DNA of 64,000 bases from Escherichia coli (GTDB taxonomy: Bacteria > Pseudomonadota > Gammaproteobacteria > Enterobacterales > Enterobacteriaceae). The stretch's first letter is position 1. Every line of letters begins with the position of its first letter. Of the stretch, positions 18,001 through 24,000 are shown one piece after another. Location of the stretch: NCBI RefSeq assembly GCF_009931435.1, contig NZ_CP043414.1. One strand, 5' to 3'. Position numbers: made by a program.

Positions 18001-21000
18001 AATTTCCGGTCGAGGCCTTCCGGGGTGATCACCAGCGGCTTCCAGCGCGGCTTGATGAAGGCCGTGGGTGCATCGGCCGGCACCTTGCGCAGGTTGTCGG
18101 CGTTCATCTCACGCAGGGTCTGCACGGCTGCCAGCACGCCTTGCGCGGCCGGCGCGGCGCGCAGTTCCAGCACCTCCAGCAAGGCCGGCGTGTAACGGCG
18201 CAGGGTGGCGAAGTTCTCGCCGACCAGGTGCAGGTGGTCGAAGCCTTCCGGCCGGGCCAGCAGCTCGGCCTCGCTGACGCTCTCGGTGAACTCGTCCCAG
18301 GGAATCACCGCCTCGATGGCGGCATAGGGGTCGCTGCCGCTTTCCTTCGCTTCCAGCAGCGCCTGGCCGATCCTGGAGTACAGGCGCACCTTGTCGTTGA
18401 TCGCCTTGCCCTGCTTCTGGAACTGCTGCTGATGCTTGTGCTTCGCGCCGCTGAACAGCTTGACCAGGATGCGGTCATGCAGATCGACCAGCTCATCGAT
18501 CACGGTCGCGGTGCTCTCCAGCACCACGGCGGCCAGGGTCGCGTAGCGGCGCTGCGGCTCGAACTTACCGAGGTCTTTGGGCGTCATCTGCCCACCCTCG
18601 CGGGCCAGCTTGAGCAGGCGGTTCTGGTGGATGTGCCGGCCCAGGCCTTCGGGCAAGTCCACCAACTGAAATGTCTTCAGCCGCTCGATGTGTTCCAGCA
18701 TGTGCCGAGAGTTGGGTTTCAGCGGTGCCTGGCGCAGCCAGGTCAACCAGGTGATGCTGCTGCCGGCCTTGAGCTTCAACAGCTCGTCCAGCTTGGCCCG
18801 ATGCGAGTCCGTGAGTGGTTCGACCAGGGCGCGGTAGACCCGCCGATTGGCTCGCGCAATGGCTTCCGAGCAGGCCCGGTCAATCACGCTCAGCGCCGGC
18901 AGGATGCGTCGTTTCTGCCGTAGGCTCTCCAGGGCCTGACCGGCCAGCAGCAAGCCTTTGTCGGTCTGCTGGGCCAGCTCGGTTAGCTCGCGCACCAGGG
19001 CGCGGAAGTCGGACAGGCCGAACGGGGCCAGTTGCAGGTAGGTGCGCAGTTCCTGGGCATGCTCGCGACGGGTCACGTCGCGCTCGCCGTACTTTGCCCA
19101 GCTCGCCGGCTCGGCCTGGACTTGCTTCGCCACCCACAGGATGACCGGCTCGGGCAGCTCGCTGTCGGTTCCCAGCGCGTAACCGGGGTAGCGCAGCAGG
19201 CAGAGCTGCACGGCGAAGCCGAGGCGGTTGGCGTCGCCGCGTCGCTGGCGGATCAGCGACAGGTCGGAGTCGTTGAAGGTGTAGTAGCGGATCAGGTCAT
19301 CCTGGCTTTCCGGCAGCGCAAGCAGGGTGTCCCGCTCCGTGGCCGAGAGGATCAAGCGACGCGGCATGTGTCAGTCGTCCGTGCGGAGGTACTGGTAGAG
19401 GGTTTCCCGGCTGATGTTGAACTCGCGGGCAAGCTGCGCCTTGGGCTCGCCGGCCGTCGCTCGCTGCCGCAGGGTAGCAGCCTGCTCATCGGACAGGGCT
19501 TTCTTGCGGCCCCGGTACGCGCCACGCTGCTTGGCCAAGGCGATGCCCTCACGCTGCCGCTCGCGGATCAGGGCGCGCTCGAACTCAGCGAAGGCCCCCA
19601 TCACCGACAGCATCAGGTTGGCCATCGGCGAGTCCTCGCCAGTGAACACCAGGCCCTCCTTCAGGAACTCGATGCGCACGCCGCGCTGAGTCAGCTTCTG
19701 TACCAAGCGACGCAGGTCATCGAGGTTGCGGGCCAGCCGATCCATGCTGTGCACCACCACTGTATCGCCTTCGCGGACGAAGCTCAGCAGCGCTTCGAGC
19801 TGGGGGCGCTGGGTGTCCTTGCCCGATGCCTTGTCGGTGAACACCTTGCTCACCTGGGTTTGTTCCAGCTGGCGTTCCGGGTTCTGGTCAAAGCTGCTGA
19901 CCCGGACGTAGCCGATGCGGTGCCCCTGCACGATGTCTCCTTGGTTGAAGGCGGCTTAAGTGCACTTTCTGTTCCGTTGTGCCTCAAAGCCCATTTCTGT
20001 CAGGCTGAAATCTATAACCTTCGCGGGCATGTGTCAAAAAATGGGAAAGCAGACTCTATTCTGACGAAGCGGCGCGGCCCTGCCTGACATCAAGTTAGGG
20101 TATAGCCTAGATTGACATGCGCGATGCAACCCTTAACTTGCTTGCACCTATCGTTTCCATGCTAGCTTTATCGTAACGCTCAAGAAATTGGGCTTAATGC
20201 CGAAAACAATAAAATAAAACAGCCAACCCTTGAGGTTCTTATGCGCCAGAATTTACCAGTGACGGGTCGAAACTTAGAACTCCCAAAAGATGCCAATATT
20301 CTTTCGACTACCTCCCCTCAAAGCCATATCACGTACGTTAATCCTGACTTCATTAAAATCAGTGGTTTCACTGAGGAAGAACTATTAGGCCAGCCTCACA
20401 ACATCGTAAGACACCCAGATATGCCGCCTGCTGCATTTGAGCATATGTGGAGTACATTAAAATCTGGCCGCTCATGGATGGGGCTAGTAAAAAATCGCTG
20501 TAAAAATGGCGACCACTATTGGGTAAGTGCTTATGTAACGCCAATAGCTAAGAATGGTTCGATTGTTGAATACCAGTCTGTAAGGACCAAGCCTGAACCT
20601 GAGCAGGTTTTGGCTGCGGAAAAATTATATGCTCAATTGAGAAGCGGGAAGGCCGCGAGGCCGAAATTGGCTGCTAGCTTTTCCGTGAAAATACTCTTGC
20701 TCATATGGGGTAGTATTATATCAAGCGCAATGGCTGCCGGCATGCTTACTGATACATCAATAAGCAGCTTATTGTTAGCCACTTTAATGTCAGGAAGCTT
20801 AAGCTCTGTTAGTGTTTTGGCTATTCTCTCTCCTCTTGGAAGACTGGTTGAAAGAGCCAGGAATATTTCCAATAACCCATTAAGTCAATCCCTCTACACT
20901 GGGCGCACCGATGAGTTTGGCCAAATAGAGTTTGCTTTACGAATGATGCAAGCTGAAACAGGCGCCATAGTAGGTCGCATAGGTGATGCATCAAATCGGC

Positions 21001-24000
21001 TTAGCGAACACACCCGAGGCCTACTAAAGGATATTGAGTCAAGCAATGTACTTACAGTTGAGCAGCAGGCAGAGACAGATCAAATAGCAACGGCAGTAAA
21101 CCAAATGGTGGCAAGCATTCAAGAGGTTGCGAGCAATGCACAGCATGCTGCAGATGCGGCCGGAAGAGCAGACACTGAGACGGCATCTGGCCAGCGTCTG
21201 GTAGCCCACACAAGCCAGTCAATCACTGCCCTTGAAGGTGAAATTAGGCAAGCCACTCAGGTTATTCATGAGCTTGAAGGTCAAAGTAACGAGATATCAA
21301 AAGTTCTTGACGTTATACGAGGGATCGCCGAGCAAACGAATTTGTTGGCACTCAACGCAGCAATTGAGGCCGCGCGTGCTGGTGAGCAGGGGCGTGGTTT
21401 TGCTGTTGTCGCCGATGAGGTTCGCAGTCTTGCTGCTCGCACACAGCAATCGACAACGGATATTCAAAGCATGATCAGCGCTCTACAAGAGCGAGCGCAA
21501 TCCGCTGTTACAGTCATGGAGCAAAGTAGTCGGCAAGCGCACACGAGTGTAGCTCACGCAGAGGAAGCAGCTACAGCTCTTGATGGAATTGGCCAACGCG
21601 TTAACGAAATTACCGACATGAACGCGCAAATAGCGACTGCGGTCGAGCAGCAGGGAGCAGTAAGTGAAGACATAAACCGCAGTATTATCAATATACGCGA
21701 TGCTGCTGATACCAATGTACAGACCGGGCAGAATAATTTGCAAAGTGCGAAATCTGTCGCTCAGTTAACTAGCGCTCTGAGCGAACTGGCAAAACAGTTT
21801 TGGGAAAAACGAGGATAACGCTTTTCAGTATCTCGACAGGGATAACTTACTTTACCATCGGTTATCCCTTTTAGCCGCACAAATTTTAGCCATGGCTTTT
21901 CAGGAAGTCAGGGCTATCAGAATGGCCTTAGAAAGCCTAGTCAAAGAGCTGTCACGAGAACACCGTTAGCTTAGCGTACGATTTTTTCCGAATTCTGCGG
22001 TTCCCCCAACTACCTCTCATCTTGAGGAACAAGAGGCTATCCGTTTACTGCGTTTAGTACGTGAAAAACTACCCACAAGCGGCGTCATTATGGTCACACA
22101 TCAACCTGGTGTCTGGAACCTGGTCGATGATATTTGTGACATTAGCGCGGTTATATAAAAACAATAAAAGCCCTGCTGTACGGAGATATAAATAAATGAA
22201 GCGAGTTCTTATTCCTGGCGTCATTTTATGTGGCGCTGATGTAGCGCAGGCCGTCGATGACAAAAATATGTACATGCATGTTTTTGAAGAGATGACGGTC
22301 TATGCTCCTGTCCCTGTACCCGTAAACGGCAACACGCATTACACCAGTGAAAGCATCGAGCGTTTACCGACCGGGAATGGCAATATCAGCGATCTGCTGA
22401 GAACCAACCCTGCGGTACGCATGGATTCAACGCAAAGTACCTCATTGAACCAGGGAGATATTCGCCCGGAGAAAATCTCTATTCACGGTGCGTCGCCCTA
22501 CCAGAATGCCTATTTGATTGACGGTATTAGTGCAACGAATAACCTGAACCCAGCGAATGAGTCCGATGCCAGTAGTGCAACCAATATTAGCGGGATGTCA
22601 CAGGGGTATTATCTTGATGTCAGCTTACTGGACAATGTGACGCTTTATGACAGTTTTGTGCCGGTTGAATTTGGCCGCTTCAATGGCGGGGTAATTGATG
22701 CAAAGATCAAACGCTTCAACGCTGATGATAGCAGCGTGAAACTGGGTTATCGCACTACGCGTTCGGACTGGTTAACATCGCATATCGATGAGAATAACAA
22801 GAGCGCATTTAATCAAGGTTCTTCAGGAAGTACTTATTACTCTCCAGATTTTAAAAAGAACTTTTATACCTTGTCGTTTAATCAGGAACTCGCTGATAAC
22901 TTTGGCGTTACCGCCGGTTTATCGCGCCGCCAGTCTGATATCATCCGCGCGGATTATGTTTCGAATGACGGCATTGTCGCCGGCAGGGCACAGTATAAAA
23001 ACGTTATCGATACTGCATTGAGCAAATTTACCTGGTTTGCCAGCGACCGCTTTACCCACGATTTAACCTTAAAATATACCGGCTCCAGCCGTGATTATAA
23101 TACCAGCACCTTCCCGGAGTCTGATCGCGAAATGGGTAATAAATCCTATGGTCTGGCATGGGATATGGATACCCAGCTCGCATGGGCCAAACTGCGTACC
23201 ACCGTTGGTTGGGATCATATTAGTGATTATACCCGTCACGATCATGACATCTGGTACACCGAACTTTCATGTACATATGGTGATATTTCAGGGCGTTGCA
23301 CCCGTGGCGGATTAGGACACATTTCCCAGGCTGTAGATAATTACACCTTCAAAACACGCCTTGACTGGCAAAAATTCGCCGTGGGTAATGTTTCGCATCA
23401 ACCCTACTTCGGCGCGGAATACATCTATTCCGATGCATGGACTGAACGCCATAACCAGTCTGAATCCTATGTGATTAATGCTGCCGGAAAGAAAACTAAC
23501 CATACCATTTACCATAAAGGTAAAGGCAGCCTGGGAATAGACAATTACACGCTGTATATGGCGGATCGCATTAACTGGCGTAATGTGTCGTTAATGCCCG
23601 GCGTGCGGTATGACTATGACAACTATCTGTCAAACCACAATATCTCCCCGCGCTTTATGACGGAATGGGATATTTTTGCTGATCAAACCTCAATGATTAC
23701 CGCCGGTTATAACCGTTACTATGGCGGGAATATTCTTGATATGGGATTACGTGATATCCGCAATAGCTGGACGGAATCGGTATCAGGCAATAAAACCCTG
23801 ACACGTTATCAGGATTTGAAAACGCCTTATAACAATGAACTGGCAATGGGATTGCAGCAAAAAATCGGTAAAAATGTTATTGCGCGCGCAAACTATGTTT
23901 ACCGTGAAGCGCATGATCAAATCAGCAAAAGCAGTCGTACCGACAGCGCGACTAAAACCACCATTACTGAATATAACAACGACGGTAAAACCAAAACGCA

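Follow-up and report, generated by a model that had tools for sequence, protein, structure and literature searches.

The tetracycline-resistance transposon Tn1721 has long been known to carry, on its Tn1722 core, a passenger gene for a "chemotaxis protein". This gene, orfI/mcp of Tn1721-Tn1722, is reportedly that of Allmeier, Cresnar, Greck and Schmitt in 1992 (Gene 111:11). Two papers (PMC3817090 and PMC13367494) cite Allmeier et al. 1992 for it, and the Tn1721 chemotaxis gene interferes with chemotaxis upon overexpression (PMC5756416). This interference is the only effect reported in the literature, so an earlier reading of the present locus, made without database searches and referred to hereafter as the sequence-only reading, was fair in calling the role of the gene on a transposon unclear; a full-text literature search for aerotaxis in connection with Tn1721 also gave nothing usable. 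Two other described systems are close to this locus, namely the Escherichia coli receptor Aer, in which an N-terminal PAS domain, a membrane hairpin, a HAMP domain and a kinase-control domain follow each other, and the yddA-yddB-pqqL unit of the same organism, which is co-transcribed as one mRNA, has a Fur box over the start codon of yddA and is de-repressed in a fur mutant (PMC3855560). Here we discuss a stretch of 64,000 nucleotides of E. coli (assembly GCF_009931435.1, contig NZ_CP043414.1), called the window, in which a complete Tn1721 lies inside chromosomal yddA and its mcp gene reads toward yddB and pqqL. The reading as a whole, to which we assign a probability of about 0.9, is that orfI/mcp encodes an Aer-type receptor, that the locus is a yddA::Tn1721 insertion and that transcription leaks out of the transposon, the net effect on the downstream host genes being polar.

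The mcp product and its relation to Aer

The mcp gene is an open reading frame (ORF) of 525 codons at 20241..21818 on the + strand, which starts with ATG and has GAGG 5 nt upstream of it. The sequence-only reading had given exactly these coordinates and had described the 525-aa protein as a PAS-like N-terminus combined with the C-terminal signalling domain of a methyl-accepting chemotaxis protein (MCP). The domain search bears out this description, because Pfam matches to PAS_3 (residues 31-114, 4.3e-17), HAMP (residues 194-239, 4.5e-7) and MCPsignal (residues 325-486, 6.9e-44) were obtained, all of them far beyond chance. The cluster of identical proteins has 2,579 member sequences. In many database versions the protein has an annotated length of 544 or 552 aa, with an N-terminal extension; in the window, reading from the in-frame upstream ATG at 20160 ends at a TAA stop (20175-20177), which leaves the start at 20241, giving 525 aa, as the only one available.

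In a PDB sequence search, the best solved-structure match of the mcp protein was full-length E. coli Aer (31cj/31ck), covering residues 7-476 at 2.8e-65, and the crystal structure of the Aer PAS domain (8DIK) matched residues 9-133 at 9.1e-41. The PAS domain of mcp (approximately residues 21-133; 20301..20639, +) is 52% identical to that of E. coli Aer over 125 aligned residues, with the same numbering as Aer. The six residues H53, R57, M69, W70, N85 and R115, which in Aer contact the flavin or its adenine and phosphate (PMC9668731), are all kept at the Aer positions when checked residue by residue on this alignment, and H58, D60, Y93 and Y111 are likewise conserved. Two hydrophobic segments, with Kyte-Doolittle maxima centred at residues 151-161 and 183-194, lie before HAMP and mark a putative membrane hairpin (approximately residues 146-200; 20676..20840, +). 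The predicted topology is therefore Aer-like, that is, a membrane hairpin with HAMP next to it and without a periplasmic sensor, and the domain order is that of Aer throughout. Thus, N-terminal PAS homology, the contacts to flavin adenine dinucleotide (FAD) and a hairpin plus HAMP without a periplasmic sensing domain, which together characterize the Aer type, are all found in mcp. The PAS domain most likely binds FAD, and the protein is most likely an FAD-based energy-taxis (aerotaxis) sensor. In the mechanism proposed here, the cytoplasmic N-terminal PAS domain would bind FAD and read the redox state of the respiratory chain, the membrane hairpin would anchor the protein, HAMP would relay the signal to the coiled-coil kinase-control domain, and the tip of this domain would dock on CheW/CheA of the host.

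The mcp protein is, however, not a close copy of E. coli Aer, since similarity is low outside the PAS domain and the tip, the N-terminal coiled-coil arm is 14 residues longer in the alignment with Aer, and the length class differs. Compared with Tsr, each coiled-coil arm of mcp is longer by an insertion of 14 residues, the two insertions being symmetric and amounting to four extra heptads. Its HAMP and signalling half align with those of Pseudomonas putida PcaY (PDB 6S18), one of the Pseudomonas-type Aer/F6-pathway receptors, across 325 residues, interrupted by only one gap of one residue (2.5e-47; the PDB match to PcaY has 2.7e-48). By these alignments the signalling domain is of the longer, Pseudomonas-like length class and not of the E. 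coli 36-heptad class; we take the class of mcp and PcaY to be the one reportedly named 40H (40-heptad) by Alexander and Zhulin in 2007. PcaY differs from mcp in that it senses through a periplasmic ligand-binding domain, whereas mcp has a cytoplasmic PAS domain and is carried by a transposon. The hairpin tip of mcp is nearly identical to the Tsr tip, so contact with CheA/CheW of the host, and with it signalling through the host Che proteins, is plausible. Among NCBIfam models, the best match of the mcp protein is CtpM, but orthology to CtpM was rejected at 267 bits against a family cutoff of 900, and orthology to Aer2 was rejected as well, the NCBIfam score being far under the cutoff.

As to the origin of the gene, the nearest non-identical relatives outside transposons are 60-77% identical; they carry the annotation "aerotaxis receptor" and come from Pseudomonas, Marinomonas, Hahella and related genera. 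The G + C content of mcp is 45-51%, in contrast to 58-68% in the rest of Tn1721. This contrast and the longer, Pseudomonas-like signalling half mark mcp as a captured foreign aer gene, the predicted source of which is a gammaproteobacterium with Pseudomonas-type chemotaxis.

Tn1721 inside chromosomal yddA

The location of mcp on a transposon, as claimed in the sequence-only reading, is upheld by three 38-bp repeats, a duplication of AACTA and 100% identity to Tn1721. The repeats, found by a repeat search at 10880-10917, 16368-16405 and 21970-22007, are 92% complementary; the first two are direct to each other and the third, the terminal repeat at the mcp end, is inverted. The element that they bound (10880..22007, 11,128 bp) is identical over its full length to copies on plasmids, including LC623892.1, which is annotated "Tn1721 transposase". 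According to the ORFs and the annotation of an identical plasmid copy, it contains a truncated tnpA' (10913-12733, -), an EamA-family gene (13198-14082, +), tetA (14114-15388, -), tetR (15392-16069, +), tnpA (16401-19367, -) and tnpR (19371-19931, -) before mcp, and the internal repeat at 16368-16405 delimits the Tn1722 core. A direct duplication of at least 300 bp, which starts at 10878 and at 16366, reflects the presence of tnpA in one truncated and one full copy. With the 38-bp repeats including the internal copy, the full gene set and a 5-bp duplication for which an empty site exists elsewhere, the element is a complete Tn1721; it shares sequence, repeats and gene order with the plasmid copies and differs only in its location, which is chromosomal and inside yddA. 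Between tetR and the internal repeat there is also an 80-aa ORF (16101-16343, -), which is called "relaxase" in the annotation of CP157103.1, an identical plasmid copy, and is presumably the remnant of a gene caught in the tet arm.

The target duplication AACTA occupies 10875-10879 on the left and 22008..22012 on the right of the element. In strain N96 (NZ_CM169999.1), positions 1-10879 of the window correspond to 2495028-2505904 and positions 22008-46000 to 2505900-2529886; because these flank matches overlap by exactly 5 bp, N96 represents the empty site with a single AACTA. The 5' part of yddA (9340..10879, +) retains 513 of 561 codons, and the Fur box at 9337-9354 matches the motif of PMC3855560 without a mismatch. 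Tn1721 is inserted after codon 513, immediately past the Walker B motif IFLDET, and YddA is very probably inactive because the C-terminal part of its ATPase domain is lost. On the other side of the transposon lie the orphaned 3' end of yddA (last 150 bp; 22008..22157, +), yddB for a TonB-dependent receptor (22196-24568, +) and pqqL for an M16 peptidase (24613-27408, +), so that mcp has the orientation of the interrupted yddA'-yddB-pqqL unit, as had been claimed. In terms of mechanism, Tn1721 has transposed into chromosomal yddA just past Walker B, very probably inactivating it, and has moved yddB-pqqL 11 kb away from the Fur-controlled promoter.

The element is common and this insertion is not. 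The mcp end alone has matches in 4,108 plasmid records. Of 5,426 complete E. coli genomes, 818 contain a match to the mcp sequence, and 229 chromosomal sites are among these matches. The junction of mcp, repeat and yddA was found in none of these 5,426 genomes, and the yddA::Tn1721 insertion is therefore a strain-specific event.

Two side observations concern the flanks. The left flank (1-10879) is only 90-95% identical to 5,207 E. coli records; no more than two, those of strains N96 and 2020CK-00188, reach 99% or above, and the right flank (22008-46000) has at most 98.6% identity among the matches listed; the host probably belongs to an uncommon Escherichia lineage. At the left junction, a hybrid promoter-like match (TTGACG-16-CAGAAT, 9/12; 10868-10895, +) takes its -35 element from yddA and its -10 element from the repeat of Tn1721, and is directed into the element, antisense to tnpA'.

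Possible transcription across the mcp end of the transposon

A canonical intrinsic terminator lies after tetR (16154..16176, +), before the internal 38-bp repeat. Its sequence is GCCCGTAGC-AGCCC-GCTACGGGC followed by TTTTT, and it forms a 9-bp stem with seven G-C pairs. This terminator is predicted to isolate the Tn1722 core, and with it mcp, from + strand transcription out of yddA or the tet arm. Read-through of the whole transposon from the native yddA promoter was rejected on this ground, and + strand RNA that reaches yddB must, given this terminator, start after 16176, either at a promoter of mcp or in the yddA remnant.

The intergenic region between tnpR and mcp (19932..20240) contains resolvase-site-like blocks, a promoter match for tnpR (TTGACA-17-TAGATT, 10/12; 20037..20009, -) and a candidate promoter for mcp (CTGACA-18-TAGATT, 9/12; 20084-20113, +), the latter being the only + strand promoter match in this spacer. 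When the spacers of related elements are aligned, conservation is confined to the resolvase-site-like repeats and the two hexamers of the tnpR promoter. Both hexamers fall in blocks that do not vary among four Tn1722-like elements and that resemble resolvase binding sites, a pattern that fits autoregulation of tnpR by the resolvase.

The mcp stop codon lies 151 bp inward of the terminal 38-bp repeat. The sequence-only reading had seen no strong terminator before this repeat, and a consensus terminator scan from the mcp stop to yddB agrees with it, having found none. One poor hairpin had been overlooked, namely a weak terminator candidate at 21838..21869 (+), 20 nt past the mcp stop, which folds with a 10-bp stem containing four G-C pairs and one G-U pair, a 12-nt loop, a free energy (dG) of -11.6 kcal/mol and the tail UUUAGCC (UUU(U)AG). 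The G + C-rich stem, the short loop and the U tract of at least 5-7 nt by which intrinsic terminators are recognized are absent from this hairpin. An Rfam scan of 19800-22300 gave a single match, to the small RNA isrL at 21823-21920 (+), which overlaps the hairpin; with 18.5 bits (E = 0.018) it stays below the gathering score of 35 and was treated as probably due to chance.

Genes similar to mcp also occur on other transposons. An 89%-identical receptor (P0041) has the same tnpA-tnpR-mcp layout in an element that ends at a related 38-bp repeat. A 77%-identical receptor (P0050) is the sole passenger of a different, 6.9-kb Tn3-family element (L008:28-6928, L009:28-6928), which has terminal repeats of about 120 bp, a 309-aa resolvase, an RHH/PIN toxin-antitoxin pair and a 997-aa transposase; this element was found in three contexts, in assemblies whose protein is named Pseudomonas aeruginosa, and its transposition module is 87% identical to Pseudomonas plasmid modules without the receptor gene. 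The aer-like gene is last and outward-reading in all these elements, and a simple terminator scan from that gene to the element end found none in these relatives. In the 89% and 77% relatives the spacer after the gene is unrelated to that of Tn1721 and has no counterpart of the post-mcp hairpin, so the hairpin is not a conserved feature. From these relatives it might be proposed that aer-like genes are a recurrent and selected cargo of Tn3-family transposons, always placed last and outward so as to serve as a mobile energy-taxis sensor and a portable promoter at once, and that yddB-pqqL has come under transposon control here; we consider this very improbable.

The explanation that we prefer rests on the position of mcp, which is the final gene of the element, is directed outward and has only a weak hairpin behind it; some of its transcripts therefore probably continue through the 38-bp repeat into yddB-pqqL. 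Such read-through, which the sequence-only reading had proposed, is a reasonable assumption and is consistent with the sequence. In the d'Aubenton-Carafa discriminant (d-score), used here for relative comparison only, the post-mcp hairpin has -28 to -38, compared with +26 for the tetR terminator, +30 for trp t and +52 for the his attenuator, and thus scores as a poor terminator. We estimate that the leak would be low-level and that the main consequence would be polarity together with the loss of Fur control, that is, a lowered expression of yddB-pqqL without a Fur response and not an activation. An insertion of 11 kb within an operon usually acts in a polar manner. The locus resembles the promoter-out systems of mobile elements (insertion sequences and transposons) in that an outward terminal gene without a canonical terminator faces co-oriented host genes, but it differs from them in that the outward promoter is here only a candidate 9/12 match. 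Tn1721 derivatives with promoters that act outward across the 38-bp repeat were reportedly described by Ubben and Schmitt; a literature search for these transposable promoters gave nothing usable, and they are not counted as support here.

Several observations weigh against parts of this explanation. On the side of the receptor, the strict methylation consensus [ASTG]2-x2-[EQ]2-x2-[ASTG]2 has no match in mcp, where relaxed motif matches occur at residues 437 and 465 only, and a C-terminal NWETF-type pentapeptide for CheR/CheB tethering was not found, the C-terminus being ...FWEKRG; membership of mcp in the methylation-dependent MCP class is thus not supported by its sequence. In addition, the longer length class of mcp may hinder its incorporation into E. 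coli arrays. On the side of transcription, the alignment with three elements that have an 89%-identical mcp shows no conservation of the -10 element of the candidate promoter. The gap of 377 nt between mcp and yddB, which includes the 3' end of yddA, is untranslated, with short ORFs only, and contains 78-nt windows with a C/G ratio of 1.5-1.6, features that would make it permissive for Rho-dependent termination. Moreover, the post-mcp hairpin with its U tail could still terminate a fraction of the transcripts.

The same observations bear on three other explanations of what happens to yddB-pqqL. If mcp transcripts ended at the hairpin or by Rho, yddB-pqqL would be essentially silent and the shared orientation would be a coincidence with a one-in-two chance. 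The stability of the hairpin and the U tract after it, the C-rich untranslated gap and the loss of the native promoter behind the tetR terminator all speak for such a polar knockout, and we give it somewhat less than an even chance, considering that the hairpin has a long loop, few G-C pairs and a short U tract and a d-score far under those of working terminators, and that Rho sites are not reliably predictable. At the other extreme, in line with the proposal of the sequence-only reading, the mcp promoter would act as a portable outward promoter from which yddB-pqqL are usefully expressed, in a constitutive or resolvase-modulated manner and not dependent on Fur. This accords with the orientation, with the weak hairpin and lack of a canonical terminator, with the tetR terminator, given which no + strand source other than mcp is plausible, with the overlap of the candidate mcp promoter and the conserved resolvase-site blocks, and with the relatives, whose aer-like gene is likewise last and outward-reading without a consensus terminator. 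Such activation nevertheless appears unlikely, because the promoter has a poor match to the consensus that lacks conservation, the transcript would have to pass the untranslated gap with its C-rich windows, yddA at the head of the unit is lost, and the insertion is unique among the complete genomes searched and hence carries no sign of selection.

The third of these explanations does not involve the transposon, and would have yddB-pqqL fed from a cryptic promoter within the 3' remnant of yddA. There is a promoter-like match in the remnant just upstream of yddB (GTGACA-18-AACAAT, 9/12; 22136-22165), but it is weak, the five promoter-like matches found in the region are little above the 2.9 expected in shuffled sequence, and the published transcript of the unit is a single co-transcribed mRNA (PMC3855560). 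A cryptic promoter is thus distinctly improbable, and low-level read-through from mcp with a polar net effect is the reading that we retain.

Annotation and meaning of the locus

With regard to annotation, the gene should be recorded as the Aer-type receptor of Tn1721 rather than as an enigmatic MCP, and the locus as a disruption of yddA (yddA::Tn1721); beyond this the finding has little importance. The mcp gene itself is a known gene, and what is new is its strain-specific chromosomal location. Whether the mcp transcript leaks past the transposon end is a question of interest, although of local interest only, and it is also of interest whether a receptor of the longer class, carried by a very common resistance transposon, alters the motility behaviour of its enterobacterial hosts. 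For the strain that carries this insertion, the disruption probably impairs yddA-yddB-pqqL, an iron-related and Fur-regulated fitness cluster, in a tetracycline-resistant background.

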